64,000 bases of DNA, taken from the NCBI GenBank assembly GCA_045837725.1, contig JBEWZL010000198.1, positions 124,001 to 188,000 of the forward strand. The letters run 5' to 3'. A program made the position numbers and the translations under genes. Source of the DNA: Vermamoeba vermiformis (taxonomy: Eukaryota). The notes under the pieces are model-generated. The model saw nothing but the letters and a program-made list of their open reading frames with translations. It was not told the DNA's origin and did no database searches. Shown here one piece after another: positions 3,420 through 64,000 of this stretch (its first letter is position 1; every line of letters starts with the position of its first letter).

Positions 3420-4652
3420 ATGAACACCACACGATATCCTTTCAACTTGCAAGAATTTCGCGCTCTCAATCTCGATCCGGATGCGTGCACTTCTTTGGAG
3501 CTCCAGAAAGATAAGGATAGCTACGACTCTTTATGCAAGTACTTGACCGAAGTATGTGGTTGCAACACGAGCTATCGACTTGGTTCACAATCAAATATCG
3601 ACGAGGAAGATAAGCAAGACGAAGGATCTGTTTTGGTTTTGGGCCTAGGCAACTTCAAGGTTGAATTCGAAGGCGAGACTATGCACGTCATTCACACTGC
3701 ACATGGAAAGCCAGTCGGTACCAGTAGAAGCGCTGTTTACTTACAAACACTCGTCTTGGTGGTGGATGGCGCCGGCAAGAAGGATCTGCTCAAGAAATTC
3801 ATCGACCATGTTGAAGAGTGGGATAATAAGGTCAACAAGGCCCTTATTAACATCTATTCATTCGATGTGGACTACAAGTACTGGCCCAAAGCCATCGTCA
3901 AGCGAAAGCGTGGAATGGACACGGTGATCTTGCCTGAGACCATCAAAAAGAAGATTGTGAACGATATTGACGCCTTTATCACTAAGGATACTGCGCGTTG
4001 GTACGCTCAACATGGTATTCCATATAAGAGAACTTATCTGCTGTATGGTCCACCTGGTACTGGAAAGACATCCACCATCGCCGCTTTAGCCTCCCACATT
4101 GACCGACATATCGCCTATTTGCACATCTCTGACCCCAAGATGACGGACAACCTCTTGAAGACAGCCTTGCAGAAGGTGCCGAAGAACTGCATTATTGTTT
4201 TGGAAGATGTGGATTCGCTCTTTACAGCGGATCGCAACAAGCTCGAGAATATTCCATTATCCTTTAGTGGTCTATTGAACGCATTGGACGGCATTGGTGG
4301 CAAGGACGCCTCAATCTTCGTGCTTACTACAAATCATATCGAACGATTGGATCCGGCTTTGATTCGTCCTGGTCGTGTAGATATGCATGTGGAATACCCT
4401 TCTGTTATTACGGACGAACAGATTCAACAAATGTTCTTGCAGTTCTATCCTGAAGCAGATGCCGCCCTTTCATCCGAATTCGTTGAACGAGTCGCGAATT
4501 TCCGTTCAACGCACCGAACTTTGAGTACTGCGACCTTGCAACAATATTTCATTGCGCACAGAACATCAGACGCACGAGAGGCAGTCGACGCAGTTGAAGG
4601 AATGCCATTGCCTTACAGCAAGGTCAATCTTGGTTCGTTGCTGTACACCTAG
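3420..4652 (+). CDS. BCS1-like AAA+ ATPase, intronless
   Basis: 410-aa ORF with WY..HGIPYKRTYLLYGPPGTGKTS (Walker A), IIVLEDVD (Walker B), SGLLNALDG and LDPALIRPGRVD. Confidence 0.9.
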   Translation: MNTTRYPFNLQEFRALNLDPDACTSLELQKDKDSYDSLCKYLTEVCGCNTSYRLGSQSNIDEEDKQDEGSVLVLGLGNFKVEFEGETMHVIHTAHGKPVGTSRSAVYLQTLVLVVDGAGKKDLLKKFIDHVEEWDNKVNKALINIYSFDVDYKYWPKAIVKRKRGMDTVILPETIKKKIVNDIDAFITKDTARWYAQHGIPYKRTYLLYGPPGTGKTSTIAALASHIDRHIAYLHISDPKMTDNLLKTALQKVPKNCIIVLEDVDSLFTADRNKLENIPLSFSGLLNALDGIGGKDASIFVLTTNHIERLDPALIRPGRVDMHVEYPSVITDEQIQQMFLQFYPEADAALSSEFVERVANFRSTHRTLSTATLQQYFIAHRTSDAREAVDAVEGMPLPYSKVNLGSLLYT

Positions 4653-21267: not shown

Positions 21268-24267
21268 ATGACAGAACAGAAGGTTACTCGTTCTAATTCT
21301 TTGAACACCAACGACGATGTGACCGAAGGGCGTTCAAAGATCTTGGCGGATTTGTCTGAGATCGTTTGTGGAATAGACTCACCTGGTGCATTTGCCTGTG
21401 GAGGAAAAATTAATAATATTTTTCCAGGTATTTACCGCGAAATAATACGATTGAATTTTTGCAACGGTTTCAGTATTAAAATGAATATGTTTTTGATACA
21501 CTAAATTTCGGTCACTGGTTTGAATACGACGAGTAATTTCCGCGATTTTATTGTTAAATTATTCATTACTTTTAGAATGCTAAAAAAGCAAATAAATTGA
21601 GAGTATTTTATTAAAATTAATGTTTTATCTAAATAATTTTTTGGGCTGCTTGCATAACGTCTTAATATTCACTCAAGACATTTGTCAGGTCTGCATATTA
21701 ACGGCTATGGCGAAGTTGGCCTTCCATTCAGAGAGCGAGAGGCCAAAGAACTTATTGGTCTTTTCAAGAAGAAAGAAATTAGTTACGTCAGGAACACGTG
21801 GGAACTAGGTACGTATTTAAGCCAGGCTAATAACAACAACCTAATAATATCAAATTTAATGCTAAAAATAACGCCTTATAACTTGCAGACGCTTCTGAAG
21901 TTCAGATATTGAACAAAGATTTTGTGCAGCAGATCCACGCACTCGTCAAGGACACCGTTGCAAGTGAACTGGGCTTGGGACCTTCAGCAAACATTGAAGC
22001 TCGATTATACAAGCTACTCATCTACGAGCCTGGAGGCTTCTTCGTGCCACACAAAGACACAGAGAAAGAAAAAGGAATGTTCGCGTCGTTGGTCGTGACA
22101 CTGCCGAGTCATTTTGAAGGCGGAGAGTTCGTTGTTAGTCACCAAAACACAGTCAAGACATTCAAGGCCGAGAACGCTTCGTACACCACAACGTACTTTG
22201 CCTTCTTTGCAGACTGTGAACACGAGATCAAGCCCGTGACATCAGGGTACCGTCTTGCCCTGGTCTATAACATTGTCAGTCTCAGTAAGGGCCCATTACC
22301 ACGTCCAAAAGGCAATGAAAGAATTGTTAAAGCAAAACACTGTCTTCAACAGTGGCAGAAATTGAATCCAGGACCGTCGAAGGCAAGTCTATGTGTACCT
22401 TTAAATTCCAAGAACTTTTCTGACAATTTGCTATTTAAGTTCGTGCACGTGTTAGAACATCCGTACACGCCTACAGGAGTATCACTTCAGGCGTTGAAAA
22501 ATCAAGACTGCGGAGTGGTGCAAGTGTTGCAAGAGGCTGTCAAAGTCGAAGACTTCGAGCTGTATTTAGGACTGCTTTTTTACAGCAAGAAAGGCGCGCC
22601 TGAATATGGTGAATACGATCGCTACGGCAATTATGAAGGCAATTATCACATTGACGAAGTGTTCGAAGAAACGATACAGTTTCGTTCGTTGTTCAACCTG
22701 GACGGAAATCGACTCGAGAAAAACCTTCCTTTGTCCGTTAAAGGTAAAAATATAATGACTAATTAATCCATTTCATTACACACATTATTATGTGCGTTTC
22801 AGTTTTCTACTAAAGATTTTCCGGACTAATCGAGTTCTTCTGATCACTTTTTCTAGATGTTTATCCTGTGGATGTTTTTGAGGACGATGATGCAGACTCA
22901 GAATCGTACGAAGAGAGAAAGTACCCCACGATTGAACTCCGCTATCGCAAAGTAGTGGTCGTACTGTTCCCTAAAAGCAAATGGATCGATATTATGTGCG
23001 AAGGAAATGAATCAGATGCCGTGACTTATTTGGCCTCGTTAGTGTCAAAGTGCTTGACCAGCGAGTCCAAAGACGAAAGTGACTGGCAAAACTGCAAACG
23101 AATGGCGAAAATTCTACTCGATAAAAATCAGCATCCGAGAGTCAATAATAGCTTTTTGGAGTCACTGAACACTATTGGTGACGTGGAAATGGTGCAAAAT
23201 TACATTGGAAAAGTCATTACAAATTTCTGCGGCAAGGAGTGGGAATCATTTTGCGTGGTGATTGATCAAAGTTTGGCCAAGTTTGGCTGGGAACAATTGA
23301 CGCCGTCAGTGACAAAATTTATTAAAGGTAAGCTATATACTTTAATCGACTTGTATTTTATTAAATTATTATTAAAATATTAATATTAAGGATCGGATTT
23401 GGGTACCAAACTCAAGCTGCTGCTTCGTTTTACTGCGGTGAAATATGACGACCCAAAAGCCGTTGTATGCTTAGGATCAATCGCACAAGATATGATCAAA
23501 GTAGACATAGGCGAGAATACACTCTATGTTCCTGACGCAGAAACAGTCGGACAACTGGCTCGGATAGCCAATGATACGGATCCAGCAATGTTAACAAACG
23601 TGAGTATAGTTTTCGAAAATCTCTATATGCCCTAAATATGGTCAATATCATTGTTAATAGGTTTATTAGATCTTCGCCTTAATCTACTCTCGGTTCATGA
23701 ACGTGGATCTGCAGTACATTCCAACAGCGAAAGTTTTGTACGAGCACATTCCGAGTATCCGTCAACGCCCCGAATTCATCAATTTAGTGCAACAGTGCAT
23801 AGCCTTTCTTCAGAATCGCATTGCAATTGCTCAAGCACGAGCGGACAATTGGACTATTCTGACACCGATGTCTTGCCATTGTTTGGAATGCGTACCGGCA
23901 AGTATAATATAATAACAATAATATGCCTCCTATCAATCTAAACCTATTGTTGTAGATCGCAAATTTTCTGAAAGATCCCAATCAAGTGGTGTACAGGTAC
24001 AAAGCACCAAGCATGGAGCGTGATCACGTGGAGCAGTCAATCAGCAAGGATCTGACGACAACGTTTCGTATTCTGACGCTGTCCACTGAAGGACGAGGCA
24101 AAGCTACAACGCTGTTAATACAAAAGACGAACAAAGAATCCGATGTTGCGAAACAAACGGCTGCTAAAGATGCTGCGACTATTACGGATCTTACTAGCAT
24201 GATTGGCGGCAATGATTCAGAGCAAGAAAGACCTTTAAAAAGACAAAAACTAGAGCATACGAGTTAA
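21268..24267 (+). CDS. 2OG-Fe(II) oxygenase-family protein, copy D, with two GC-AG introns
   Basis: Intact HKD...H...R motifs; CHCLEC; KRQK tail; GCAAGT donors at 22383 and 23898. Confidence 0.88.
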
Positions 24268-29137: not shown

Positions 29138-31987
29138 TTACAATAATGGTGCTACAATTAAAGCAAAAATCATGCTAGCAAAAGGCAGTCTAGCCGCTGA
29201 ACTGTTCAAGATCGTTTGTTGAACCGGTGGCGAGCTCGAAATTGAAATTGGCTTAGCGGGCTGTCCTCTCGTTTCAATAACACTAGGTGTAATGTCCTTG
29301 ATCACTGGATTGATTTCTTCAAGTCCTTTTGTCAGACCCGAGTCAAGTTCTGTCTTTCGACTTCTGGATGTCGCTCAACAAGTCCCTGTTAAACGTAAGA
29401 AATCACGTTGTAAGTATCATATTTAATATCGCCTTACTTAATAACTTGATCTGACGGCTGTTCTGTAGAGTTGGGAGCACCACCGATAGTGACGATAATA
29501 AGGTAAGTATTGAGACCTTGTGAGTTAGTAGAGACCAATGTATACTCAGCACTCAATCGATACTCGCTAATGTTGTACTTGGATGCGATATTTTGCAACA
29601 GCTTCTGAACCAGGACATCAGTCAAGTTGCCGAAAGTTGACAGTGTCAAGTCGACGCTCAGACCTGCAACAATATTAGCGTTAGTAGAATAGGTAATTTG
29701 ACTGTCAAAGTAACATTCAGATCTGAAACGAGCGTTAGAGGAGTTATTAACTCAATCAGTGCTTATGATACGTACTCTTTGGACATTGTAATAACGAAGG
29801 ATTTGTCAAATCAACAGTGAGATTGTACGAGCTGAGAATCCATGTGATCGATTGAGTGTCATTTGTCACCTCCGTAGAATAAGGCGATACTGGATATGTC
29901 AGCGATTGACCTGCCACAAACAGTGTAGGTCTGTCCCTCTATTGTATTATGACATTAGATCGGGTATTAATATCGTTCTGAAGGGAAAACATACGCCCAA
30001 AGTAGCAGGTGTGAACGAGTTCAATCCTCCGTATTCGATTGTCTCATCAAATCCATCGTTGTTGATAAAGCTAAAATGAAGCAATAGACCATTGGGAGTA
30101 GTCTCAAGGCAATCAAATTGTGGCTTGACATTTGGCACGAACTCTTTCGGAATCAACTGACATCCTTGAGCACGAGGACTCATCGGTTTGTATCCTGGTG
30201 CACATTTACAGTTAACGCAACCCGTACCCGAGTCGCAGTCCTCATATCCAGTCGCGATTCCGTTGTTGCATTCTGCCATTTACGTCACTCGATTTCTCAA
30301 AAAATGACACTTTTTGACACTTACGATCAAGACAAGTTCCATTCACTGCAACTGTTCCGAATTGACACTTGCACTGATATATACATCCTAATGAGCCATC
30401 GCATTCTTCGTTCAAATCAAGTACTCCATTGCCACAGAATGTGATTTTTCGAGACATGACTTGAGTGCCTGTCACATCCTTTGCAACAACGATGATATCA
30501 GATCCAATGGTGCTTGCCATCGACACTGACATTGTCGTACTTGGTGCTGCAATGCATCGTCAGGAGGTTTCGTCCACTCATTTGGTGTTACTTACCATCG
30601 TGAGTTACTTCGGGACCGATTAAAACTGCTGTAGTTTGAGACAACTTCACCATTTGATCTGAGCGAAAGATCGATCAGCATAACTCTTTTTCGTTAGGCG
30701 TTAAATACTTACAGCTAATGCGCTTGTCCGTTTTGCTGTACGCTACCAAGACAACATTGCTTCCTAACTGAAGAACAGAGGGTGCGAAGTTAGGGTCTGC
30801 ATTGCTGGTCATGTCAAGTTGGTACAACGGCAGTAAGCCAGGGCCAAAAGTAACTATTAATATTGATCTGTTAGCATAGCACTCGTTCGACAGTTTCTTA
30901 CTTACTTAGTTGGATCCGGCCATCAGAAGTAACAAACAGACCACCAACAATATTCAAATCGTCCATAACGAAAGGAACACCGTTTGTCACGTTTTTTACG
31001 CTGCCTAAAGTGAAGTCTGAGGCGTTCACAGTGGTTGCTTGAATCCGGTATTGGTCAAATTGAAATGTCGCCAAAGTGTAGATGATTGGATAACCACCAA
31101 CTAATTTCCGACCGACTGCCGAGTGAATAGACAATACCTATACTCTATTTAGCCTATTGTGAGATTTAAATTTAACGTACGAGTGAAAATGCGGGATCGC
31201 TAACGAGTGTTCCCGAAACTGGATTGTGATACAAGAAAAGAGAGACTGAATCGCTAGATAATCCAATGGCGTAGTGGAGCCAACTTGAGCCAACAATGTC
31301 GATGTAATCAGACTTAAAAGCAAGGATTAGAAAAAATTTGCATCGCGATCTGAAATTTCAGTCGTCATTTTTGGGGTCCCCAAGCCTGTATTTGGCGAAA
31401 ACACTCACCGAGTTCCAATTTCCAAAGTCTGAAGAATAAAATGCGACGGATGCGATGGTACCGGTTTCCTGCATTGAGGCTCCCGTGCATTTGATAATTC
31501 CGGTGGTTTCCCAGACAGCGTATGCACTATAGCTCTAAATTAGACATTGGACGGAGGTAACATTTATCATTAACTTACGTGTCATCGGGAAAAACGACGA
31601 TATTTTGGGCTGTCAGAGGACCCAAATCCGAATAATCGCCCGCTGGGATTAAAGGTGATTCCTTTTCGAATGTATCGTATGGCATCGCTGTAGTTGCATT
31701 AATTCTTAGTATTCGAGTGCCGCTCATATTGTTCGGAGCTGCATAACCGTAGATGATTGCGTAATTTCCGCTCTTGAACGACGCAACGCGAGGATAAGAG
31801 TAGCCTTCTGTAGTAGCATCACTACTGATGACTTGCCAATCTGTCTTGCGTAATGGCTGCGCAGTTACTAATAAGGAGGGGAGTCAGTCGATAACGGATT
31901 CAAATCCACCGCTACTTCGATGTCGAACTTACCGTTGGCGACGATACAGAACAGCGTCACCACTGAGATAAAATGTATGACGTGCAT
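29138..31987 (-). CDS. Cys-rich, probably GPI-anchored surface protein, copy 1; +1 insertion at 29351/29352
   Basis: Signal peptide, YSYPRVASFKSG domain, CGNGVLDLNEECDG and CNNG..EDCDSG repeats, hydrophobic C-terminus SSAARLPFASMIFALIVAPLL. Confidence 0.75.
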
Positions 31988-32239
31988 TTTACGTGTGGTA
32001 TGATGATATTAGGGCGTAAAAAATGATACTTGTCTGTCAAAAACAAATGTTGTAGATCGAACCTTTAGTCCCGAATTTCGTCCCAAACACGCAAAATAAA
32101 TAAATTATATCTTCGTCACGCGCTTTCAGCTTTGTGAAACAACCGTAAATGTGCCAGTATTTAGATCTCGACAGCGAGATAAAAAGATAAACAAATGTGA
32201 TGCATTTCCGGTGTAAATTAAACGATATGGGTTTAAATA

Positions 32240-35036
32240 TTATAATACAGTAAGAGATGCAATCATAAGCGAATAAATGACTGCTAATTGAATACAAACA
32301 GCTGAAGATCCGCTCATCTGCTCCATGCCTAGGAGTACCCGTGGGCGTAAAAACAGAAATTGGAGTGCTCGTACCTCGCGACTCGATGATACTTGGAGTG
32401 ACTGACTTGATCACTGGATTGACCTCTTCAAGTCCTTTTGTCAGATCCGAATCAAATTCGTCTTTCGACTTCTGGATGTCGTCTAGTAGATCTCTGAAAC
32501 ACAAGCACCAATTAGAAATTGAAACAGAATAAAAAACCTATCTCCAAACGTACTTGACCACGTTTACTGATGACTCTTCTGACGAAGTAGAGGCGTTGAC
32601 GGTGACGATAATAAGGTAAGTACTGAGACCTTGTGAGTTAGTAGAGACCAACGTATACTCAGCACTCAATCGAGACTCGCTAATGTTGTACTTGGATGCG
32701 ATGTTTTGCAACAGCTTTTGAACCAGGGCATCAGTCAAGTTGCCGAAAGTTGACAGTGTCAAGTCGACACTCAGACCTGGAACAACATTAGCGTTTATAG
32801 AATAGGCGATATAACTTACTCTTAGGGCACTCTAACGATGGCTTGGTCAGATCAACAGTGAGATTGTAAGAACTGAGAATCCAGGTGATCGATCGAGTGT
32901 CATTTGTCACCTCTGTAGAATAAGGTGATACTGGATATGTCAGCGATTGACCTGCCACAAACAGTGTAGGTCTGTCCTTCTATAGAATTATGATATTAGA
33001 TCACGTATTAACGATTGTTCTTAAATAATAACATACGCCCAAAGAGGTGGGTGTGAACGAGTTCAATCCTCCATATTGGATCGTCTCATCAAATCCATCG
33101 TTGTTGATAAAGCTAAAGTGAAGCAAAAGACCAGCTGTAGTAGTCTCGAGGCAATCAAATTGAGGTTTGACATTCGGCACGAATTCTTTTGGAATCAACT
33201 GACATCCTTGAGAACGAGGACTCATCGGTTTGTATCCTGGTGCACATTTACAGTCAACACAACCGGTACCTGAGTCACAGTCCTCGTATCCAGTCACGAT
33301 TCCATTGTTGACACTCTGTCATTCATGTCAGTCTATTTCTCAAAAAATGACACTTTTTGACACTTACGATCAACACATGTTCCATTCACTGCAACTGTTC
33401 CGAATTGACATTTGCAATGATCGATACATCCTAATGAGCCATCACACTCTTCTTTGAGATCAAGTGCGCCATTGCCACAGAAAGTGATTGTTCGAGACAT
33501 GATCTGAGTGCCTGTCACGTCCTTTGCAACAACGATGATATCCGATCCAATGGTGCTTGCCATCGACACTGACATTGTTGTACTTGGCGCTATGACAGTC
33601 GTTAGAATAACTGCAAATGATCATTGGCTTTACGTACCATCGTGAGTTACTTCGGGACCGACCAGAACTGCTGTCGTTCGAGATAACTTCACCATTTGGT
33701 CTAAACGAACCAAAATTAGTACTTGAGCTCTTTGCACGCCATTTCCTCACTTACAGTTAATGCGATTGTAAGACGTACTGAAAGCCACCAAAACTACGTT
33801 GTTACTCAATTGAAGAACAGAGGGTGAGAAATTGCTATCAGCGTAGCGAGTAACATTGATTTGATACAATGCAGATACTGCAATTGTATCAAAGGCCACT
33901 ATATGAAATACTTTAATGAGGAATGACCAAAACATATAAATTTAAAAACGCTTACGGAGTTGGATCCTGCCGTCAGAAGTAACAAACAGGCCAGCAACTA
34001 TATCCAGATCGTCCAAGACGAAAGGAATTGCCTTCGTGGCATTGATAACAGTATCGTCATAATTAAGTGTTGCGCCGACATTGAGCGATTGGAGTGTGAA
34101 GTAGCCTCCTTGGCTCGAATACACAACAAACGAAAAGATTGTAGGATAGCCCGAATAAAGTTTCCGAGTGACTGCCGAATGAATGGTTGTGCCCTGTAGC
34201 ATAAATTAGCTTAAAACAGGGCAGATCACGGAAAGAACTTACCGATCCGAAAGAGCTTGGAAGTACTTGGGTCGTAACGTCCGGATTCTTGTATAAGAAG
34301 TTAGAAACATCCGTATCGCCTGAGTACCCAATGGCATAGTGGGACCAACTTGAACCAGCGATGTCTAAGTAATCAGTCTAAAAAAGGAAAGTTACAAATA
34401 TTGTAAATTTCTTCGGATGCGTTTAAGTAAACTTGAAGTTAAGGCATTTTAGAGATACTTACCGCATTCCAAACTCCAATATCCTGATAGATAATATTTG
34501 TCGAGGGCAGGAAATAAGTCTTCGGTAAAAGAAAAGCCTACACACTTAGCCAGTCCTTTCATTTGCCAGATTGCCAACGCACTGATTATAAACATTAGAA
34601 TATTATTATTCTTGCATAATTAAATGAAGCTATCTTACTTATCATCAGGAAATATGACTAAATTTTGAGCTGTCATAGGTCCCAAAAGGGGACCAACTTC
34701 TGCAACCGTTGAGTATTCCGCTTCGCTCACCGAATATATTGCCCCATTAGTAGCATTAACTAGTCGGACTTGGGTGACGCTCGTATAATTCGCCGCTGAG
34801 TAACCAAAGATGATTGCGTAATTTCCGCTCTTGAAAGATGCGACGCGAGGATAAGAGTAGCCATCTGTAGTAGCATTGCTATTGAGGATGACCCAATTTG
34901 TTTTGACTAAAGGAGGACCACTCGCTAGCCGAGGAGTCGACGGCAACTGAAGCAAATCTGCCGCTACGATCGGGAAAGTTCGCTGCAAAATGATGCAGAG
35001 CAAGACCACCAACAAGAAAAAGCTTCTTTGTTGCAT
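32240..35036 (-). CDS. Cys-rich surface protein, copy 2; +1 insertion at 32330/32331
   Basis: Same exon series as copies 1 and 3; the frame-corrected tail is MSGSSAVCIQLAVIYSLMIASLTVL. Confidence 0.75.
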
Positions 35037-35319
35037 GTGAGCTGTGGTTTTCGAAATCGGAAGTAAATTTAAATTACGAACGCAATTCGAAACATGTGAC
35101 ATTGACATCGAACCTGAAGTCCCAAATTGTCCCAAAAAAAGAGCTTTCGAAAAGTCGGATAGAAATTTCGCATATTGCTACTTATAAAGTATACTTAGAG
35201 GAGCACCACTCGTATTCATTGAGTAACGGTCAAGCCAAACGGCGGATCAAACGTAGTACTACGGATTCGTATAAAATGACCGAAAAGTGGACTCAAATTC
35301 CTTTCGAAATAACGTAAAT

Positions 35320-38094
35320 TTACATTATAAGTGCTAGAATAAGTAGATAAACTGCTAATCGAATACCAACAGCTGAAGCTTCGCTCATCTGGTCCGTACC
35401 TGTGACAGGAGTACCCGTGGGCGTAAAAACAGAAATTGGATTACTCGTACCTCGCGACTCGATGATACTTGGAGTGACTGACTTGATCACTGGATTAACT
35501 TCTTCAAGTCCTTCTGTCAGATCCGAATCAACTTCTTCTTTCGACTTGTGGATGTCGTTCAGTAGGGTCCTGTGATTTGCAATTTAAATTAGAAATTCAT
35601 CATTATGTATAGTAATGAAGACCTACGTGACAACATCCGTTGCTTGAGTCTCCGACGTATCAGACGCACTGACGGTAATTGTAATAACATAAGTATTGAT
35701 GCCTTGTGCATCCGTTGACAGCAAGGTGTATTCAGCACTCAATCGAGACTCGCTAATGTTGTACTTTGATGCGATGTTTTGCAACAGCCTCTGGACCAGG
35801 GCATCAGTCAAGTTGCCAAAAGTTGACAGTGTCAAGTCGACACTCAGATCTACAACAACAATGTTAGGTTTGATTAGTCTGCGCTATGATACCTTACTCT
35901 TAGGGCATTCCAATAAATAAGGATTTGTCAGATCAATAGTGAGATTATACTGGCCAAGAATCCACGTGATTGAGTTGGTGTCATTTGGAGCCAAAGCGGC
36001 AAAAACCCACGCAGGATAAGTAAGCGATTGACCAGCCGGAAAGAATTGAGGTACCGTCTATAATAATATCACGTTATTTTTGGCGTCAGAAAAGTATAAA
36101 CATCGCGGTAAACTTACGCCCAAACTGGCCGGTGTTAACGAGTTGAATTTTCCAGGAGGAATTGTCTGATCAAAGCCGTCCATATTGTTGAAGCTGAAAT
36201 AGAGCACGAGACCAAATGATTTAATGTCAAGGCAGTCCAAATTTGGCTTGACATTCGGCACGAATTCTTTCGGAATCAGCTGACAGCCTTGAGCACGTGG
36301 TGTCATTGGTTGATAGCCTGGGTCACATTTACAATTGGTGCAGTTTGCTCCCGAGTCGCACTCTTCAAAACCAGTCACAACTCCGTTGTTGCATTCTATC
36401 ACCCAGCGTTAGTAGATCTACAAAGTGACAGCTGTCAAAACAAACACTTACGATCATTACAGACGCCCGACAACCAGCTGCTATTTCCAGCAACTGTACC
36501 AACTGCACATTTACAGTCGGTATTGCAGTTAATCGAGCCATCGCATTCTTCGTTCAAATCAAGTGCTCCGTTGCCACAGAAAGTGATGGTTCGAGACATG
36601 ATCTGAGTGCCTGTCACGTCCTTTGCAACAACGATAAAGTCTGAGCCAGTGGTGTTTGCGATTGAAACTGACGTCGTGGTGCTTGGAGCTATGAGAGATC
36701 ATCGTTAGATTGAAATTTCGCGCCATTTATCCTGACGTACCATCGTGCGTTATCTGAGGACCAACAAGAATCGCTGTGGTTCTGAATAACCTCACCAATT
36801 GGTCTAGATTAAAGCGACGTTAGCGTATATGACCCTTGGCGTATCAGTATATTAGTACTTACAGTTAATGCGATTTGAAGTTGTGCTGAAAGCCACCAAC
36901 AAACCATTGCTGCCCATAAAATTGAAACTTGGTGCAAACTTAGTATCAGCATAGCGAGCCACGTCGATCTGGTACAGCGGTTGAAGTGTAGTACTATTGA
37001 ATGCGACTAAATATAAGTGAATATTAGTTAGTGTTCGGTGAATACGAATGAAAGTTCAGATCTCGTCTTACGAAGTTGGATCGTGCCATTAGAGCGAACA
37101 AAAAGGCCTGCAACGACTTCCAATGCATCTACAACGAATGGAACAGCATTCACCATGTCATTCGCGATACCTTGATAAGTGTTCGTGCCTCCAATGGCGC
37201 TGGTTGATGTGATCTCGTAAACCCGGTTAAGGCCAGACGGGTGAACAATAAAAGCATAAAACACTGGATAACCAAGAGTGCTACTGGAAGTCAAATGAAT
37301 GACCGTCGTGTCCTATTTCACGAAGTTAATGAACTAATTCGAATGGATCCAAAAAAAAAGACGAGTAACTTACTAATCCTCCCAAAGATTGGTCGAAATT
37401 AAAATTTGGACTTGGACTTCGAACCAAGAAGTTCGAAATATTAGTGACACCTGAATGTGAGAGGGCGTAGTAAGATTTACTTAGGCCAGTAATATCCAAG
37501 TAGTCGATCTAAAAAAAGACTGACGTTAGATCTTCGAGTTATCAACTTGATTTAACTCTATAGTTCGACTAAATATGTCACCTAATCATGACTTACCGAG
37601 TTCCAATGGCCTACAGCTGATTCATAGAGTATGTCGGTCGACATCAGACCAGCTTCAGGCGTAAAAGACATGCCCATGCACACAGCGCCTTCTCTCATTT
37701 GCCAAATTCCATATGCACTTAAGAATATGATTATTACATATTTATAATCATGATTGCTTTCTTACGTGCCGTCTGGAAAAACGAAAACATTCTGCGCTGT
37801 CATTGGTCCAACGAATGCCGAGCCAGCAGTGACCGTTGAATATTGCGCCTCGTATGTTGAAAATTTATCAGGACCAGCATAGACTCGTAATTGAGTGACG
37901 CTCGTATTGTTCGCCGCTGAGTAACCAAAGATGATGGCGTAAGTGCCGCTCTTGAAAGATGCAACGCGAGGATAAGAGTAGCCGTCAGTAGTAGCATTGC
38001 TATTGAGCACAATCCAGTCGGTTTTGCGCAAGGGCTGCGCATGAACTATAATTAAAAATATTAACAATGCATAAAGGTGGACCAGATGCACCAT
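35320..38094 (-). CDS. Cys-rich surface protein, copy 3
   Basis: MVHLVHLYALLIFLIIVHA signal peptide; same repeats; tail MSEASAVGIRLAVYLLILALIM. Confidence 0.78.
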
Positions 38095-51933: not shown

Positions 51934-54900
51934 ATGCGCCCATATCTAGTGATTCTGTTGGTACTATTCGTGGCATGGAATGCAAGTGGTGATCTTATAA
52001 CAAAGCGAGCCCAATTATCATCAAAGCGTGACGGAGTTGGCGGCATCCAAGTTGCAGATCGATTCTACTTTGCTGGTGGCATGGAACTCAACGACTATAT
52101 TCCCACAAATATCGTCGAAATATACAATATAACATCGGGAGAATGGGAAGAGCCGATTTACTTGCAAGAGCCTCGTGCATTCATCTCAACAGCTGTCATC
52201 GGTCAAAATATTTATTTTATTGGCGGATATCGGCTCTCTAATTCCTGTGCAATGCTTTACAACTCTGTTTTACATCAATACGAAGACATTGGATGTGGCC
52301 CAACAGTTCGTCAAGCAATCCAAATATCGGATTACAATTCCACGTTGACAGTTCTTGGAGCGTTCTCTGCTGACTTCTACAATATCACTTCAGCGCAGTG
52401 GTACTACCGGCCAAAGCTCACAACATGGATGCAGAGCATGGGTGGTGGAGCAGTACTGGTTCACGAAAACTTGGTCGTTGGCATCGGAGGTGTCAACTCA
52501 ACGACGTTCGAACAGATCTATGACGCGTGGATTTACGACACTTATACAGATGAACTGACAGTATTCAGCAACGCCACAACAGCAGATATTGTGGTTTCAT
52601 CTTCGGACTTCTCTGTGGCTCACGGCCGTGTCGTCATCTACGTTACTGGCTGGTACTTTGTGCACGAGTTTGGTACGACAGAATGGCACGAAGGCTTTAT
52701 GCCGAATATTTCAAATGTAGCAATCCTCCCTGACGCCATATTCTTGTTCAATATAACTGGTTTCACCATTTACGACTGGAGTTCTATGGAGCCAAGATGG
52801 GTAGTTGGATACGTCATAAACACATTCGTTTTCGACAATCAAATAGTGATAGATCTAGGAAGCAGCCTGCTCGTCTATGAATCAGCACAGTTGACGACAA
52901 TTAACCTTGATTCTCTGATACGACGTGCGGTTCGTTTTGGTCAGTCAGGTGACAAGTACATGTTTTACACCAGCAGCAGTCAACTTCGTCTCTACGATTC
53001 ACAAACAAAGAGCATATCAAACTTGTCTCTAGTCGTAGTAGATGTCAGGTGGATGATCCCTTTTGACGACACAACATTGGTTCTTTTCACGACAAGCACC
53101 GCAACTATCTATTACTTGAACAACGACACGAGCATTGATCAAACAATATCTATGACTTACTCAGGGTACCTCATCGGTACTGATATAGTCAGTGTCAACG
53201 ATCAGAAAGTGTGGATCAATCTTGGCGAAACAAGAGCGTTGAACCTCACCTTATCCCGCTAAATTAATTGACAATGCTGCGATTTTTGGACAGACTGGTC
53301 AAAGTTATTTCTTCATGGACGTATTCAACCACGTGACGAGAGAATGGCAGCCAAGAATACCAATGGACTCTAACCCCTACGGCTTGTATCTACCAGTAGT
53401 CGTGATTGACGACTTGATTACCGTTGGAAAGAGACCTTGGACTTTTCGATATAATGTCACGAGCGGAGAGTCATCTACAACGATGGTGGCTTCAAATTCA
53501 TGGCCTATGGGTCGAGTAGTCAACACTGTGTCCGTTGTGAATCACACAGGTTACCTCCCAGGCACAACTTCGTCCATGATTATCTCTGTCAACTCAACGA
53601 CAGTGACTTTTTCCGATGACTTGCAGCTCAGTGGCGCACCAATACAATTCGTTACCAGCAACGACAACGTCATTTATATGACAGTATATGAAGGACATTA
53701 CTACAGCCTACACACATATGATATAGTGAATGACTTGGTGGATACACTAGTCTTGCCACAACCACAAGACTCCGTGTCAATAGCAATATTCAATGACACG
53801 TTGATTGCCTTAGGAAGCGATGGAAATGCTTATGGCTTATTACGAAGTGACAAATTAACGTGGTACAAAGTTCCGTTGCAAAGCAATTTTTTTCGGCCAA
53901 TCACGGCCATGATGAAAGACGGCACAATGATGGTAGCGGCAGGAAGACACAATATCCTTAAAACTTATACGGACGAGTTACTCTTCATCAATGCATCGGC
54001 TGTCATCGAGTTGGGCACTAAGATATCGATTAATCAACCTTTCACCGACAGAACGCCTAGTACGCCGGACGCAGCCAGCCCGAACCAACAGAGTGGATTG
54101 ACACAAGGAGAACTCGCAGCAGCAGTTGTCGTACCTGTAGTCGTTGTCATTGGAGGCCTCATAGCACTCATAGTCGTATTGCTCAAGAGAAGGCGCAGCA
54201 ACAAGAAGAAAGGCTCATCAAACACTGTTGGTCTCGAGGCACGGTTCGGAGCATGGTTCACTCCGTTCAATCAGATCACTTTCAGAGAGCAGCTCGGTCA
54301 AGGAGGATCAGGTCAAGTGTTCAAAGGCACTTGGAAGAACACAACAGTTGCACTCAAAGTGAGCATGACTCAAGCAAACACGAGTGTCATCGCTGAACTC
54401 GAACTCATGATGCAACTCAGACCTCATCCAAATGTCGTTCAGTTGCTTGGCTTCAGTGTGCATCCAGAGACAGACAGCATCATTTTGATCATCGAGTTCT
54501 GTGAAGGTGGTTCACTTGACGCCAAGCTCTATGACAAGCACCACGATGACATATCACTTCAAAATCAGCTTCAATGGCTCACGGGCATCGCCAAAGGACT
54601 CAGTCACTTGCATTCGAACAACATCGTGCACAGGGATGTTGCTGCGAGGAACATCTTGCTTGATAGAAACGAACCAAAACTGACTGACTTTGGCATGTCA
54701 CGACTCGTTGATGAACAAAAACAACACGGAACAACAAAGTCAGAACTTGGACCAATCAGATGGATGTCACCAGAGTCGTTGAAGAACAAAGAATACTCCA
54801 CAAAGTCTGGTAAGTTTGTAAAGCGAAGCTCTTATTGTGTTTCCTGTGCACACGTCAATAACCTCTTCGTTCAGACGTGTGGTCATTTGGTATTCTGAGG

Positions 54901-55119
54901 TACGAAGTGATTGCACGACAAGAGCCTCACAGCGAAGCAGATCCGATCGAGATTGGTCGACTCATCAGAGACTCAGGTTTGACACCTGTCATTCCATCGT
55001 CGTGTCCTTCTCAGCTCGCTGATGTCATGAAACAATGCTGGCAAATGTCGCCACAATCAAGACCAACTATAGAGGCCATTATTCCATCATTGGAGGCTTT
55101 ACGAATATCGCTTCAGTAG
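51934..55119 (+). CDS. Receptor kinase with Kelch-like ectodomain, copy 1; +1 insertion at 53250/53251; intron 54810-54874
   Basis: Signal peptide, FYFAGG..VEIYN..W Kelch-like repeats, one TM helix, GQGGSG/VALK/HRDVAARN/DFG/PIRWMSPE. Confidence 0.88.
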
Positions 55120-55546
55120 ATTATGATAAAGCTCGGAAAATTAAATTAAAGTTACCTTCTTAGGGTATTAAATCAAGTATTCATGATTATTTAGATTTTC
55201 ACCGATGCTACTAAAAGATGCAGTATGACTGACTTTTTGCCAGATCCCAAGTATCTAATGATTACGCGCGTGTGAATTCCGAAAGCGTAAACACGTACAA
55301 ATTTTGACGTTTTTATCTTTATGGCATTAACGCATATTAGACACTATACCAGTTAGGTATAACGCTAATCAGTCAAGAGTGCTCGTGGCTGCAAGGTAAC
55401 TTTCATGATTAGATCTTCCCTGAATGAGCATGATTAAATGCTGTTCGTTTATTTTATTATTAAATTTACACTTTAAACCTGATTACAGCATTTATTTTTC
55501 TGTCGGCTAAATATTTTTTCAATTAGGGACACGAATCAACGATCCG

Positions 55547-58500
55547 ATGCGGCTTTTGATTCTCTTCGTGCTATATTGCAGCTCATTAGTTGCCACGAGC
55601 AATATAGTTACAAAGCAAACCCAATTGTCTGCAAAACGTGACGGAGTTGGTGGAATCCAAGTTGCAGATCAATTCTATTTTGCTGGTGGCTTCGAACTCC
55701 ATGACTATATTCCCACAAATATTGTCGAAATATACAATATAACATCAGGAGAATGGGAAGAGCCGATTTACTTGCAAGAGCCTCGTGGATTCATCTCCAC
55801 AGCTGTCATCGGTCAAAATATTTATTTTATTGGCGGAACTCGGGTGCTCTACTGCACTGCACTATATAATTCTTCTTCGCATCAATATGAAGATATTGGA
55901 TGTGGACCAACAGTTCGGAAAATACCCGGCCAGATCACGAACCAAAATGCAACAGTTACCATACTAGGAAGTTTCTCGGTGGATCTTTATAACATTACGT
56001 CAAAACAGTGGTACTACTTCCCGAAGCTGACATCATGGATGCAAAATATTAGTAGCGGTTTCTCACTCATTCATGAAAACCTCATCATTGGAGTTGGAGG
56101 TTTCAACGCAACGACGCTGGACCTGATCAATGACGCGTGGATTTACGACACTTTTACAGATGAACTGACAGTATTCAGCAACGCCATTACCACACTCAAC
56201 ACATTAAACACGGCATTCAGATTCACCGTGGCCAACGGCAGGGTCGGCATATACACCGTTGACAGGTTCATTTCGCATCAATTCGGCACGACGGAATGGC
56301 GCGAAGTTTTCGTGAACAATATTTTGCAAGCGGCGATCCTCCCCGACGTTCTATTCTTGGTCAACGACACAAGTTATGCAGTCTATGACTGGAGCACTGA
56401 AACCTTGACATTCACGCTTGACCGAATCTACAACCTTTATCCGTTTGGAAGTCAACTTGTTCTCGATCGAAAAACAGCTCTTCGTATCTATGAAGCTGGA
56501 CAATGGACAGATTTGCAACTCGCTTCATCAATATATACGAACGTTCGTTGGCTCAACAGATTAGTCTTTCAAGGTGCAGACAATCGGTTGCAATTCTATG
56601 ATTCACTCACGAAGAGCATATGGACGTCATCAACAACGCCAGTCAATGTTGTATCGTTTCTTCCATTTGACGACGATAGATTAGTCATATTCATGCCCGG
56701 CCGATTGGCGACCATCTATTACGCTAGCAATGACAGCCTATCAGCAGTTTTCGCCGCTAATATGACGAGTGGCGTCGTCGTTGGCACCGATATTATTGGT
56801 GTAGACTCTCAGACTGTGTTGGTCAACTTGAGTCAGGTGATGCCGTTGACCAGAATGACTTCGTCAGCATCGTCTGATTACACAGTCTTGCGTGGCTACC
56901 TGACTGACTATAATTACATCGATGTCTACAATTATGCGACGCGGTCGTGGCTGCCACAGATATTTATGAACCTAACGCAACAGCTTGGTGTCAACTATCC
57001 AAATATAGTTGTAATTGACGATTTGTTAATCGTAATGAAGAGATTCGGTTATTTTCGCTATAATACCACCACCGGAGAGATATTTGTGAATTTAAGCACG
57101 GCAGTCGCGGCACCCCTGTTCCGCACACTTACCAGAGTTCCCGTCGTTGATCGGATTGGCTATCTTCCTGGCACTGCAGTTTCATCAATGATTTATTTCA
57201 ACTCCACGTACCTCGCATTCGTTGACGCCCTATTCTTACCAGATAGAACCAACCAATTCACTACTAGTCCCGAGAACGTAATATACATGTCGGCTACTTC
57301 TCAAACCGTGTTCTCCAAGATTTTCATTTACAATATCTCAAGCGGAATGTTGGACACGGCGGTATTGCCATCACCACCGTCAAGTGCATTCGTGGCAACT
57401 GTCAACAATGTCACACTTGCGTTCGGCACTGGCGGAGATATCTTTGGATTTTATCATAGTGACCCTTCAAAGTGGTACACGACACCGTTCAACTACAGCA
57501 TATCACCTACTATCATCGAGATTGTGGCTGATGGAACGCTAATGCTGGCCAGCGGAAGACACTTTCAGCTTGGATTTTACAACGACCAGATTCTTTTCGT
57601 CAATGCATCAGCTATCATTGGGCTAGGCTCCGTGGTGTCTGAGCCAGTAACTGGAACAGAACCTACTGCTTACAATGTCCCGCTAGACAGTCCCGGTGGT
57701 GCAAGTGCCTTGGCGACTGGAGAGCTTGCTGCTGCCATCGTTGTCCCGGTTGTAGTTGTCATCGGAGGTGTCATAGCACTCGTCATCGTATTGATCAAAC
57801 GAAGAAAACACAAATCGTCAACTACAATTGGATTGGAGGCACGGTACGGAGCATGGTTCACTCCGTTCAACCAGATCACTTTCGGAGAGCAGCTGGGTCA
57901 AGGAGCATCAGGTCAAGTGTTCAAAGGCACTTGGAAGAACACAACAGTTGCACTCAAAGTGAGCATGACTCAAGCAAACACGAGTGTCATCGCTGAACTC
58001 GAACTCATGATGCAACTCAGACCTCATCCAAATGTCGTTCAGTTGCTTGGCTTCAGTGTGCATCCAGAGACAGACAGCATCATTTTGATCATCGAGTTCT
58101 GTGAAGGTGGTTCTCTCGACTCCACGTTGTACGACGCTGCCGACGACCTGTCACCGCAAACTCAAGTTCAATGGCTCACAGGCGTAGCAAAAGGGCTTGG
58201 TCACTTGCATTCGAACAATGTCGTGCACAGAGATGTTGCAGCGAGGAACGTGTTACTTCACAGAAACGAACCAAAACTGACTGATTTTGGCATGTCACGA
58301 CTCGTTGACGAACAGAAACAACACGGAACAACAAAGTCAGAACTTGGACCAATCAGATGGATGTCACCAGAGTCGTTGAAGAACAAAGAGTACTCCACAA
58401 AGTCAGGTAAGTTCAACACTTTGACACGCGTCAATGACTCGGGACTGATGAAGCATCATTACTAACAAGTAAGTTTTAACAGATATTTGGTCGTTTGGTA

Positions 58501-58727
58501 TTCTCATGTTCGAGGTCATTGCACGACAAGAGCCTCACAACGAAGCAGATCCGATCGAGATTGGTCGATTGATCAGAGACTCAGGTTTGACACCTGTCAT
58601 TCCATCGTCGTGTCATCCTCAACTCGCTGATGTTATGAAGCAATGCTGGCAGATGTCGCCACAATCAAGACCAACTATAGAGGCCATTATTCCAGAATTG
58701 GAGGCAGTACGAATATCGCTTCATTAG
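55547..58727 (+). CDS. Receptor kinase with Kelch-like ectodomain, copy 2; intron 58407-58482
   Basis: 972-aa ORF plus terminal exon; same architecture as copy 1. Confidence 0.92.
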
Positions 58728-59151
58728 ATTATGATAAAGCATCCGGAAAATTAAATTCTAGTTACCTTCTTAGGGTATTAGATCCAGTATTCATGATGAT
58801 TTAGATTTTCCCCGATGCTACTTAAAGATATAGTCTGCTCTGACTTCCAAGTATCTAATGATTACGCGCGTGTGAATTCAGAAAGCGTATTCACGTACAA
58901 ATTTTGACGTTTTTTATCTTTATGGCATTAACGCATATTAGACACTATACCAGTTAGGTATAACGCTAATCAGTCAAGAGTTGTCGTGTCTGGTGCAAGG
59001 TACCTATTCAGATTAGATCTTCCCTGAATGAGCATGATTAAATGCTGTTCCGTTTATTTTATTACTACATTTACACTTTAAACCTGATTACAGCATTTAT
59101 TTTTCTGTCGGCTAAATATTTTTTCAATTAGGACGCGAATCAAAGATCCGG

Positions 59152-62100
59152 ATGCGGCTTTTGATTCTCTTCGTGCTATATTGCAGCTCATTAGTTGCCA
59201 CGAACAATATAATTACAAAGCAAACCCAATTGTCTGCAAAACGTGACGGACTTGGTGGAATCCAAGTTGCAGATCAATTCTATTTTGCTGGTGGCTTCGA
59301 GCTCAACGATTATATTCCCACAAATATTGTCGAAATATACAATATAACATCCGGAGAATGGGAAGAGCCGATTTACTTGGAAGAGCCTCGTGGATTCATC
59401 TCAACAGCTGTCATCGGTCAAAATATTTATTTTATTGGCGGAACTCGGGTGCTCTACTGCACTGCACTATATAATTCTTCTTCGCATCAATATGAAGATA
59501 TTGGATGTGGACCAACAGTTCGGAAAATACCCGTCCAGATCACGAACCAAAATGCAACAGTTACCATACTAGGAAGTTTCTCGGTGGATTTTTATAACAT
59601 TACGTCCAAACAGTGGTACTACTTCCCGAAGCTGACATCATGGATGCAAAATATTAGTAGCGGTTTCTCACTCATTCATGAAAACCTCATCATTGGAGTT
59701 GGAGGTTTCAACGCAACGACGCTCGACTTGATCAATGACGCGTGGATCTACGACACTTATACAGATGAACTGACAGTATTCAGTAACGCCATTACCACAC
59801 TCAACACAGTAAACAAGAGTTTCAAATTCACCGTGGCCAACGGCAGAGTAGGCATATACACCACTGACGATAGGTTCATTTCACATCAATTCGGCACGAC
59901 GGAATGGCGCGAAGTTTTCGTGAACAATATTTTGCAAGCAGCGATCCTCCCCGACGTTCTATTCTTGGTCAATGACACAAGCTATGCAGTCTATGACTGG
60001 AACACTGAAGCCTTGACATTCACGCTTGACCGAATCTACAACATTTATCAGTTTGGAAGTCAACTTGTTCTCCATCGCTTAACCTCGCTTCGTATCTATG
60101 AAGCTGGCCAATGGACAGAATTGCAACTCGCTTCATCAATGTATACTTCCGCTCGATGGCTCAACAGAATAGTCTTTCGAGGTGCAGGCAATCAGTTGCC
60201 ATTCTATGATTCACTCACGAAGAGCATATGGACGTCCTCATCAACAGCGCCATTCAATATTGTGTCGTTTCTTCCATTTGACGACGATAGATTAGTCATA
60301 TTCATGAGCGGCCAATTGGCGACCATCTATTACGCAAGCAATGACAGCCTATCAGCAGTTTTCGCCGCTAATATGACAAGTGGCGTCGTCGTTGGCACCG
60401 ATATTATCAGCTTAGACTCTCAGACTGTGTTGATCAACTTGACTCAGGTGATGCCGTTGACCAGAATGACGACGTCAGCATCGTCTGATTACACAGTCTT
60501 GCGTGGCTACCTGAGCGACTATAATTACATCGATGTCTACAATTATGTGACGCGGTCGTGGCAGCCACAGATATTTATGAACCTAACGCAACAAATTGGT
60601 GTCAACTATCCAAATATAGTTGTAATCGACGATTTGTTAATCGTAATGAAGAGATTCGGTTATTTTCGCTATAATACCACCACCGGAGAGATAGTGACGT
60701 TAAACACGGCAGTCGGGGCACCCTTCTTCCGCACACTTAACAGAGTTCCCATCGTTGATCGGATTGGCTATCTTCCTGGCAGTGCGCCTTCAGCAATGAT
60801 TTCTTTCAACTCCACATCTCTCACATTCGTTGACACCCTATCCTTACCAGAGAGAACCAACCAATTCACTACTAGTCCCGAGAACGTAATCTACATGTCG
60901 GCTAATTCTCAAGGCGTGTTCTCCAAGATTTTCATTTACAATATCTCAAGCGGAATGTTGGACACGGCGGTATTGCCATCACCACCGTCAAGTGCATTCG
61001 TGGCAACTGTCAACAATGTCACGCTGGCATTCGGCACTGGCGGAGATATCTTTGGATTTTATCATAGTGACCCTTCAAAGTGGTACACGACACCGTTTAA
61101 CTACAGCATATCACCTACTATCATCGAGATTGTGGCTGATGGAACGCTAATGCTGGCCAGCGGAAGACATTATCAGCTTGGATTTTACAACGACCAGATT
61201 CTTTTCGTCAACGCGTCAGCTATCATTGCGCTAGCCTCCGTGGTGTCTGAACCGGTAACTGGAACAGAACCTACTTACAATGTCCCGCTAGACAGTCCCA
61301 GTGGCTTGGCGACTGGAGACCTTGTTGCTGCCATCGTTGTCCCGGTTGTGGTTGTCATTGGAGGCGTCATAGCGCTCGTCATTGTGTTGGTAAAGCGAAG
61401 GCGCAACAACAAGAAGAAAGGCTCATCAAACACCGTTGGTCTCGAGGCACGGTTCGGAGCATGGTTCACTCCGTTTGATCAGATCACTTTCGGAGAGCAG
61501 CTCGGTCAAGGAGCATCAGGTCAAGTGTTCAAAGGCACTTGGAAGAACACAACAGTTGCACTCAAAGTGAGCATGACTCAAGCAAACACGAGTGTCATCG
61601 CTGAACTCGAACTCATGATGCAACTCAGACCTCATCCAAATGTCGTTCAGTTGCTTGGCTTTAGCGTGCATCCAGAGACAGACAGCATAATCTTGATCAT
61701 TGAGTTCTGTGAAGGCGGTTCTCTCGATGCCAAGTTGTACGATGAGACACACGAGATATCATTCAAGGATCAAGTTCAATGGCTTGTTGGTGTTGCAAAA
61801 GGACTCAGTCACTTGCATTCGAACAACATCGTGCATCGTGATATCGCAGCGAGAAATGTTCTGATCGACAGAAACGAACCAAAACTGACTGACTTCGGAA
61901 TGTCGCGACTCGTTGACGAACAGAAACAACACGGAACAACAAAGTCAGAACTTGGACCAATCAGATGGATGTCGCCAGAGTCGTTGAAGAACAAAGAGTA
62001 CTCCACAAAGTCAGGTAAAGCGTGCTCTTATTGTGTTACCTGTTCACAAGTCAATAACCTCTTCGTTCAGACGTGTGGTCATTTGGTATTCTCATGTTCG

Positions 62101-62315
62101 AAGTTATTGCACGACAAGAGCCTCACAGCGAAGCAGATCCAATCGAGATTGGACGACTGATCAGAGACTCAGGTTTGACACCTGTCATTCCATCGTCGTG
62201 TCATCCTCAACTCGCTGATGTTATGAAGCAATGCTGGCAGATGTCGCCACAATCAAGACCAACTATAGAGGCCATTATTCCAGAATTGGAGGCAGTACGA
62301 ATATCGCTTCATTAG
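59152..62315 (+). CDS. Receptor kinase with Kelch-like ectodomain, copy 3; intron 62015-62070
   Basis: 1002-aa ORF plus terminal exon; same architecture. Confidence 0.92.
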
Positions 62316-62758
62316 ATTATGACAAAGCATCCGGAAAATTAAATTAAAGTTACCTTCTTCGGTAATTAACTCAAGTATTCATGATGATTTAGATTTTCCC
62401 CGATGCTACTAAAAGATATAGTCTGCTATGACTTTTTGCCAGATACCCCAAGTATCTAATGATTACGCGCGTGTGAATTCAGAAAGCGTATTCACGTACA
62501 AATTTTGACGTTTTTTATCTTTATGGCATTAACGCATATTAGACACTATACCAGTTAGGTATAACGCTAATCAATCAATAGGTCTCGTGTCTAGTGCAAG
62601 GTACCTATTCTAATCATGATTAGATCTTCCCTGAATGAGCATGATTAAATGCTGTTCCGTTTATTTTATTACTGCATTTACACATTTAAACTGGTTACAG
62701 CATTTATTTTTCTGTCGGCTAAATATTTTTTCAATTAGGACGCGAATCAAAGATCCGG

Positions 62759-64000
62759 ATGCGGCTTTTGATTCTCTTCGTGCTATATTGCAGCTCATTA
62801 GTTGCCACGAACAATATAATTACAAAGCAAACCCAATTGTCTGCAAAACGTGACGGAGTTGGCGGCATCCAAGTTGCAGATCAATTTTATTTTGCTGGTG
62901 GCTTCGAACTCCATGACTATATTCCCACAAATATTGTCGAGATATACAATACAACATCGGGAGAATGGGAAGTGCCGATTTACTTGCAAGAGCCTCGTGG
63001 ATTCATCTCCACAGCTGTCATTGGCCAAAATATTTATTTTATTGGCGGAACTCGGGTGCTCTACTGCACTGCACTATATAATTCTTCTTCGCATCAATAT
63101 GAAGATATTGGATGTGGACCAACAGTTCGGAAAATACCCGGCCAGATCACGAACCAAAATGCAACAGTTACCATACTAGGAAGTTTCTCGGTGGATTTTT
63201 ATAACATTACGTCCAAACAGTGGTACAACTTCCCGAAGCTGACATCATGGATGCAAAATATTGGTAGCGGTTTCTCACTCATTCATGAAAACCTCATCAT
63301 TGGAGTTGGAGGTTTCAACGCAACGACGCAGGACCTGATCAATGACGCGTGGATTTACGACACTTCTAAAGATGAACTGACAGTATTCAGCAACGCCATT
63401 ACCACACTCAACACATTAAACAAGAATTTCAGATTCACCGTGGCCAACGGCAGAGTCGGCATTTTCACCACGGACAGGTAAACGACAAGTCTACCATGAG
63501 CTGCAGCGAAGCTAAAAGACGGACAGGTTCATTTCTCATCAGTTCGGCACGACGGAATGGCGCGAAGTTTTCGTGAACAATATTTTGCAAGCAGCGATCC
63601 TCCCCGACGTTCTATTCTTGATCAACGACACAAGTTATGCGGTCTATGACTGGAACACTGAAGCCTTGATATTCACGCTTGACCGAATCTACAACATTTA
63701 TCCGTTTGGAAGTCAACTTGTTCTCGATCGAAAAACGGCTCTTCGTATCTATGAAGCTGGCCAATGGACAGAATTGCAACTCGCTTCATCAATATATACG
63801 AACGTTCGTTGGCTCAACAGATTAGTCTTTCAAGGTGCAGGCAATCAGTTGCAATTTTACGATTCACTCACGAAGAGCATAAGCACGTCATCAACAACGC
63901 CAGTCAATGTTGTATCGTTTCTTCCATTTGACGACGATAGATTAGTCATATTCATGCCCGGCCAATTGGCGACCATCTATTACGCTAGCAATGACAGTCT
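62759..64000 (+). CDS. Receptor kinase copy 4, 3' end outside window, with copy-specific intron 63478-63526
   Basis: Near-identical to the N-termini of copies 2 and 3; the frame is restored by removing 63478-63526. Confidence 0.85.
63478..63526 (+). other. Paralog-specific 49-nt GT-AG intron flanked by a direct repeat
   Basis: ACGGACAG|GTAAAC...GCTAAAAGACGGACAG|GT; absent at the homologous site in copies 2 and 3. Confidence 0.8.

Follow-up and report, generated by a model that had tools for sequence, protein, structure and literature searches.

One of four tandem receptor-kinase genes in Vermamoeba vermiformis, the copy referred to here as c4, carries an insertion of 49 nt that has the sequence features of an intron. 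The insertion lies in coding sequence, and the candidate donor GT and acceptor AG are both drawn from a decamer that is duplicated at its two ends. We infer both splicing and an origin in the repair of a staggered break from the DNA, and consider it somewhat probable that the insert is a spliceable intron born in this way. That it is a spliced intron of any origin, one derived from an introner included, is fairly likely on the same sequence.

The gene array occupies the last 12 kb of the window, which is the whole 64-kb stretch of DNA that was analysed. It consists of four tandem paralogues, c1 to c4, with ATG codons at 51934, 55547, 59152 and 62759. The encoded proteins each combine a signal peptide with a Kelch-like ectodomain, a membrane span and a tyrosine-kinase-like domain. 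The four are Kelch-like receptor-kinase genes in tandem, and the kinase half of c4 lies beyond the window end. The array units share 89.8% identity across 6,353 self-alignment columns. In an alignment of the first 1.2 kb, 48 of 1,193 bases distinguish c4 from c2, and 70 of 1,196 distinguish it from c3. Bases specific to c4 occur, for instance, at 63454-63472 and 63536-63542.

Exon 1 of c4 (62759..63477, forward strand), delimited by its open reading frame (ORF) and translation, consists of 239 codons and 2 bases that encode the signal peptide and the Kelch-like ectodomain. Its protein is 94% identical to those of c2 and c3. The predicted exon 2 (63527..64000, forward strand), which was aligned to c2 and c3, is open to the window end, where the gene is cut. 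The first exons of c2 (55547..58406) and c3 (59152..62014), both on the forward strand, run uninterrupted through the homologous site. The most divergent copy, c1 (51934..54898, forward strand), is likewise uninterrupted there. It has a frame change near 53255-53275, and the surrounding sequence (53240-53300) holds no inserted segment relative to c2 and c3. It reflects either pseudogenisation by a frameshift or an error of 1 nt in the assembly.

In all three of c1, c2 and c3, the kinase domain is interrupted by a common phase-1 intron at ...KS/D(V/I)WSFG, where the first slash marks the junction (54810-54875, 58407-58482 and 62015-62070, respectively). The c3 version (62015..62070, forward strand) is 56 nt long and has the donor GTAAAG, and its junction KS/DVWSFG is also that of the transcript-derived protein P0004. 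The first 8 nt of the c1 version (GTAAGTTT) are gone from c3, where the intron now begins GTAAAG. Because the ORF calls of distant relatives end at the same place, this intron is read as old. An Rfam scan of 62000-64000 gave no match above threshold.

Elsewhere in the window, the minus strand at 29300-38050 holds three tandem paralogous units that are 70-81% identical and have intron positions in common, for example ...attaact/GTAAGT and ...gatc/GTAAGTGT. Of the ORFs in this region, 32040-32537 and 34638-35177 were searched against Pfam, and neither matched a family. On the forward strand, the ORFs at 17394-17972 and 21882-22763 are both 2OG-Fe(II) oxygenases; they are paralogues with 81% DNA identity over 410 nt. 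A BCS1-like AAA ATPase lies at 3393-4649 on the forward strand. Most of the Atlas clusters closest to it are annotated as giant-virus (Nucleocytoviricota) proteins, which is only a weak lead.

The insert in c4 is defined by a short direct repeat. At 63470-63528 the gene reads ACGGACAG-GTAAAC...CTAAAAG-ACGGACAG-GT. In the whole 64-kb window there are exactly two occurrences of the decamer ACGGACAGGT, at 63470..63479 and 63519..63528 (both forward strand), 49 nt apart. Its chance expectation in the window is 0.07, and two or more matches were found in 0 of 100 shuffles. The last two bases of the left repeat form the candidate donor GT, and the CAG of the right repeat (63524-63526) forms the candidate acceptor. 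Between the two repeats lie 39 nt of filler (63480..63518, forward strand) that is unique in the window.

A DNA alignment of the four paralogues places the 49 extra bases in c4 alone. All 49 are absent from c1 and c2, and c3 lacks 46 of them, owing to one extra GAT codon in c3. The insert is the sole insertion of at least 20 nt in the array self-alignment of 6,353 columns. The direct repeat across its junctions is 10 nt, compared with 0-4 nt in 49 introns called heuristically in the window. No inverted repeat involves the insert. A preliminary description of this DNA had reported the duplicated decamer at these positions, an intervening text as quoted above, a 49-nt insertion relative to uninterrupted copies 2 and 3, and no visible terminal inverted repeats; all of these are seen in the present comparison.

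Removal of one repeat together with the filler would restore the ancestral message. The predicted intron (63478..63526, forward strand) is 49 nt long and in phase 2. It has the terminal dinucleotides of a U2-type GT-AG intron, with GT at 63478 and AG ending at 63526, and the paralogue reading frame is preserved when it is taken out. The candidate 5' splice site (63478..63483, forward strand) is GTAAAC in the context CAG/GTAAAC. A branch-site-like CTAAA is found at 63512..63516 (forward strand), with the presumed branch A at 63515, 11 nt before the intron end.

If the insert is kept, the c4 reading frame from 62759 ends ...GIFTTDR and is followed by an in-frame TAA (63479..63481, forward strand), so that the protein ends at residue 240. 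When 63477 is joined to 63527 by script, the result is ...GIFTTDRFISHQFGTTEW..., which contains IFTTDRFISHQ and is open for 397 codons to the window end. Downstream of the insert, the frame of c4 is open for 158 codons. Two earlier claims are thus confirmed, namely that scarless removal restores IFTTDRFISHQ, and that the unspliced message stops at once while the downstream frame stays open.

Introns elsewhere in the window provide a standard for comparison. The 49 heuristic calls required open-frame joining, a G at +5 and a YTRAY motif. The comparison of donors used 45 of them, four nested or overlapping calls having been dropped (starts 5538, 15209, 42793, 30901 minus strand). The heuristic introns have a median length of 61 nt and a range of 43-106 nt, and 4 of the 49 are no longer than 49 nt. 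In 21 of the 49 the intron starts with GTAAGT. The distance from the YTRAY motif to the 3' end is 7-23 nt; in six introns it is 11 nt, as for the c4 insert. The CTAA motif that had been pointed out at 63512 therefore agrees in type and spacing with the branch-site consensus of the window. The full CTAAA deviates from YTRAY at its last base, and an AG follows 3 nt after the presumed branch A.

The donor fits less closely in one respect. CAG/GTAAAC has 7 of 9 matches to CAG/GTAAGT, which is the median of the 45 heuristic introns. It lacks the usual G at +5, a base that the 49-intron set was required to have, so that this set is uninformative on the rarity of GTAAAC. An unconstrained scan found a few other intron candidates without G at +5. 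The closest precedent in the family for a GTAAA-type donor is the GTAAAG of the c3 kinase-domain intron.

The chief argument against a fortuitous likeness to an intron comes from simulation, together with the insert being the single large indel in the array. In 400,000 random insertions into the coding sequence of the family, each consisting of a 10-bp duplication and 39 nt, scarless GT-AG removal was possible in 2.6%. When a purine at +3, an A at +4 and a branch-like motif were required as well, the fraction fell to 0.13%.

The main alternative explanation is that the insertion is disabling. In this model the insert, whether it stems from break repair or from another process, is unspliced or poorly spliced, its likeness to an intron is luck, and c4 is either a young pseudogene or a gene for a truncated, secreted fragment of 240 residues. 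Several observations are in keeping with it. The donor GTAAAC is without G at +5, and the automatically called gene of another assembly stops at residue 240, although this is an ORF call only. The frame change of c1 in the same array also belongs here, because it indicates that decaying copies are tolerated in the array. Against it stand the same simulated frequencies, 2.6% for scarless removal and 0.13% with donor and branch features, as well as the occurrence of one such indel only in 6.3 kb of aligned array. Likewise, the insert is unchanged across three haplotypes, and 158 codons are open downstream of it.

Expression data bear on the same alternative. No spliced read was found in the RNA runs X21 and X23, an observation on the side of a disabling insertion. 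Depth is zero over 62224-64000 in both runs, and equally so on the intact c2 and c3, apart from partial matches that come from other kinases. Of the 8 and 15 reads placed (23 in all), 22 overlap the stretch only in part and map to the conserved kinase region, and none falls on c4. Because the intact c2 and c3 are as silent as c4 in these runs, the silence neither supports nor undermines c4. X21 and X23 carry the same species label as the DNA run X1, yet they contain essentially no reads from c2 to c4 (55000-64000). This means either that the array was not expressed under the conditions sampled or that a divergent strain supplied the RNA. A small DNA run from 2017 with the same label as X1 contains none of the words of the stretch, whereas the RNA-like public runs X9, X10 and X13 contain part of it. 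A protein search with an exon-2 query gave no match.

Substitutions provide further evidence on the state of c4. Of the changes specific to the c4 lineage, 12 are synonymous and 10 nonsynonymous; for the part downstream of the insert the figures are 5 and 4. The neutral expectation would be roughly 1 synonymous to 3.5 nonsynonymous. As read from these sequences, the changes indicate constraint, although much of it may predate the insertion. The 5 to 4 ratio in the downstream codons argues against a disabled gene. The differences among insert-bearing haplotypes, with 6 nonsynonymous and 3 synonymous bases, are compatible with a disabled gene, but they are not distinguishable from neutral and have no power either way. 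Taken with the observations above, a disabling insertion is possible but rather unlikely.

The model proposed for the birth of the putative intron is a staggered-break repair mechanism. In this model, a staggered double-strand break would first occur at ACGGACAGGT in the c4 exon. Next, both 10-nt overhangs would be filled in, and 39 nt of unrelated DNA would be captured between them. This would lengthen the exon by 49 nt and leave a perfect 10-bp duplication at the ends of the insertion. Because AG/GT lies within the decamer, the donor GT would be taken from its left copy and the acceptor AG from its right copy. By chance, the filler would supply AAAC at donor positions +3 to +6 and, 11 nt upstream of the acceptor, the CTAAA branch site. 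Splicing of the U2 type would then take out 63478-63526, comprising one repeat and the filler, and restore the ancestral frame.

The filler was compared with several sources of DNA. No second copy with up to 3 mismatches was found in the 64-kb window, which holds about 50 introns. The best local alignment of the filler to both strands of the window scores 23, compared with a shuffle mean of 23.8, and 45 of 60 shuffles score at least as high. A 10-nt reverse match to the signal-peptide region of c4 itself is at chance level. A 22-mer of the filler had 0 matches in collections of metagenome, genome and viral contigs, a negative of little weight, as this organism is itself absent from them. The closest relatives of c4 in those collections are 59-61% identical and come from metagenomes; there are none in prokaryote genomes. 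In DNA run X1, the contig through the insert is unbranched and has a depth of 489, compared with 611 in the adjoining contig. This unbranched course at ordinary depth speaks against a further identical stretch of at least 31 nt in X1. The filler thus appears to be single-copy, as judged on 64 kb and the X1 contig graph.

Duplication of an exon segment was also considered as a source of the insert. New introns can arise when an exon segment that contains AGGT is duplicated in tandem. One AGGT then serves as donor and the other as acceptor, so that the original message is regained on splicing. The c4 insert resembles these introns in that a duplicated AGGT gives both splice sites and the message would be restored. 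In the known cases the intron copies the adjacent exon, whereas in c4 duplication accounts for only 10 of 49 nt, the remaining 39 being unrelated. Tandem duplication was rejected on these grounds, the 39-nt filler being without a significant match to the flanks or the window.

Another model for the insert is that it is an introner. Introners are intron families derived from transposons (Gozashti et al. 2022, PMC9860276; review PMC11282704). Some of them, such as those of Florenciella, are described as carrying neither splice site and co-opting both from the target (PMC9860276). Applied to c4, the 39-nt core would be a miniature non-autonomous transposon with a 10-bp target-site duplication, both splice sites would come from the target, and copies would be expected elsewhere.

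The c4 insert shares with introners a perfect target-site-like duplication at the exon-intron junctions and splice sites recruited from the duplicated target. The published families also include types with neither splice site and families without terminal inverted repeats (PMC9860276). There are differences as well. Multi-copy status is the defining feature of introners, and 64 kb and the X1 contig graph hold no second copy of the c4 core, whether up to 3 mismatches are allowed or local alignment is used. In X1, the contig through the insert has no branches and ordinary depth, and the other 49 heuristic introns have junction repeats of at most 4 nt. The core, at 39 nt, is very small, has no terminal inverted repeats and shows no notable fold; the RNA fold of the insert is not unusual, with z = -0.49. 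Its duplication of 10 bp also falls outside the 3-9 bp quoted for target-site duplications in PMC9860276.

The preliminary description had suggested an undescribed short introner family. This suggestion is not borne out by the missing second copy in 64 kb, the lack of terminal inverted repeats and the X1 contig. The core would have to be the first copy sighted of an ultra-short introner of an undescribed kind, making 10-bp duplications, having no splice sites of its own, needing an AGGT landing site and being active in a free-living freshwater protist lineage. To our knowledge, introners have not been reported in such a lineage. This explanation is improbable, and a staggered break with captured DNA fits better.

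The closest parallels to staggered-break repair in c4 are found in Daphnia pulex. Among the neointrons of this species, 33 direct repeats of 4-12 bp connect the exon end with the far intron end, which Li et al. (2014, PMC4202315) trace to repair of a single staggered double-strand break with insertion. A model in which new introns are captured during nonhomologous end joining (NHEJ) was given by Farlow et al. (2011, PMC3020277). As in Daphnia, the c4 insert is short and absent from relatives, and the repeat of the exon end recurs at the far end of the intron, with 10 bp falling within 4-12 bp. The repeat likewise overlaps the splice sites, and the filler has no identifiable source. The two cases differ in that the host of c4 is a microbial eukaryote with introns of about 60 nt. 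Furthermore, the c4 case comes from a comparison of paralogues and not of alleles, shows no presence/absence polymorphism, and involves a predicted intron.

DNA of organelle or other free origin can also be captured at breaks as new introns. In that process, foreign filler is ligated into an exon and subsequently spliced out. The c4 insert is alike in having foreign filler that would have been ligated into an exon.

Evidence that the insert was gained, rather than lost elsewhere, can be provided by the related sequences. The site is uninterrupted in nine of nine relatives that span it. These are c1, c2 and c3, the ORF calls P0005/L001, P0006, P0007, P0009 and P0010, and the transcript-derived P0004. 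The five ORF-call relatives lie on other contigs and are 47-51% identical. Of three related loci, only L001 spans the site; L002 stops short of it, and L003, a 26% match, was left out. Because all nine spanning relatives are continuous, the insert is read as a gain on the c4 lineage. This gain is strongly supported by the sequences, and the earlier view of an insertion rather than a loss stands. Two features of neointrons from break repair, a perfect repeat (here of 10 bp) and absence from relatives (nine of nine), are found in c4.

An old intron that was kept in c4 and precisely lost from all other family members is a formal possibility only. The nine uninterrupted relatives include ones only 47-51% identical, and the two 10-bp repeats are still perfect, implying youth. 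Such a history is very improbable.

The insert is real DNA. A contig of DNA run X1 spans 63393-63572 with 0 differences and 0 gaps relative to the window. A contig of X4, a water metagenome from a different study, spans 63125-63855 with 10 differences and 0 gaps. Eight of these 10 differences were listed, and all eight lie outside the insert. A fourth data set is represented by P0008, an ORF from another assembly. P0008 was found with a protein query from the N-terminal part of c2, alongside two distant proteins, and is an ORF call on DNA. It is 240 aa long, matches c4 exon 1 at 236 of 240 residues (98%) and ends at the same residue as unspliced c4, ...FTTDR. With contigs from two runs of different studies spanning the insert gap-free, and the ORF of a third assembly stopping at the same codon, an assembly or sequencing artefact is scarcely credible.

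The same data place bounds on the age of the insert. The window, X1 and X4 represent three haplotypes about 1% apart, and the insert is identical in all. No joint that skips the insert was reported in the X1 or X4 contigs, which can drop rare variants. No insert-free c4 was seen among the window, X1, X4 or the fourth data set, in which P0008 implies the insert. No presence/absence polymorphism was seen. The insert is younger than the c2/c4 duplication (dS about 0.08) and older than the haplotype split of about 1%. The perfect 10-bp repeats argue for its youth. It had been described as a very recent gain, caught at birth. The gain is retained, with nine of nine relatives uninterrupted and both repeats perfect, but "at birth" is an overstatement, as every sampled haplotype has the insert.

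Downstream of the insert, X1 differs from the window at four positions within 63641-63696. These differences are at full depth and are common to X4. At 63641 and 63670 the X1/X4 variant is the base of both c2 and c3, at 63696 it is that of c2 only, and at 63656 it is that of neither. They may be due to either ancestral polymorphism or gene conversion between array members.

Cases in which the mechanism of intron birth is still readable from the DNA are uncommon, and those discussed in PMC3020277 come mostly from Daphnia, Drosophila and Aspergillus. At the c4 locus the flanking repeats are intact, three neighbouring paralogues preserve the ancestral sequence, and the duplicated target provides the GT as well as the AG. 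Staggered-break repair is an already known route to new introns, and c4 is probably a further case of that kind. If the insert is unspliced, it is an ordinary pseudogenising insertion. If it is spliced, c4 would be a compact example of how, in a microbial eukaryote, break repair can give rise to a functional intron in a single step. The insert would then also offer a natural substrate of 49 nt for studying the minimal sequence needs of the spliceosome in this lineage.
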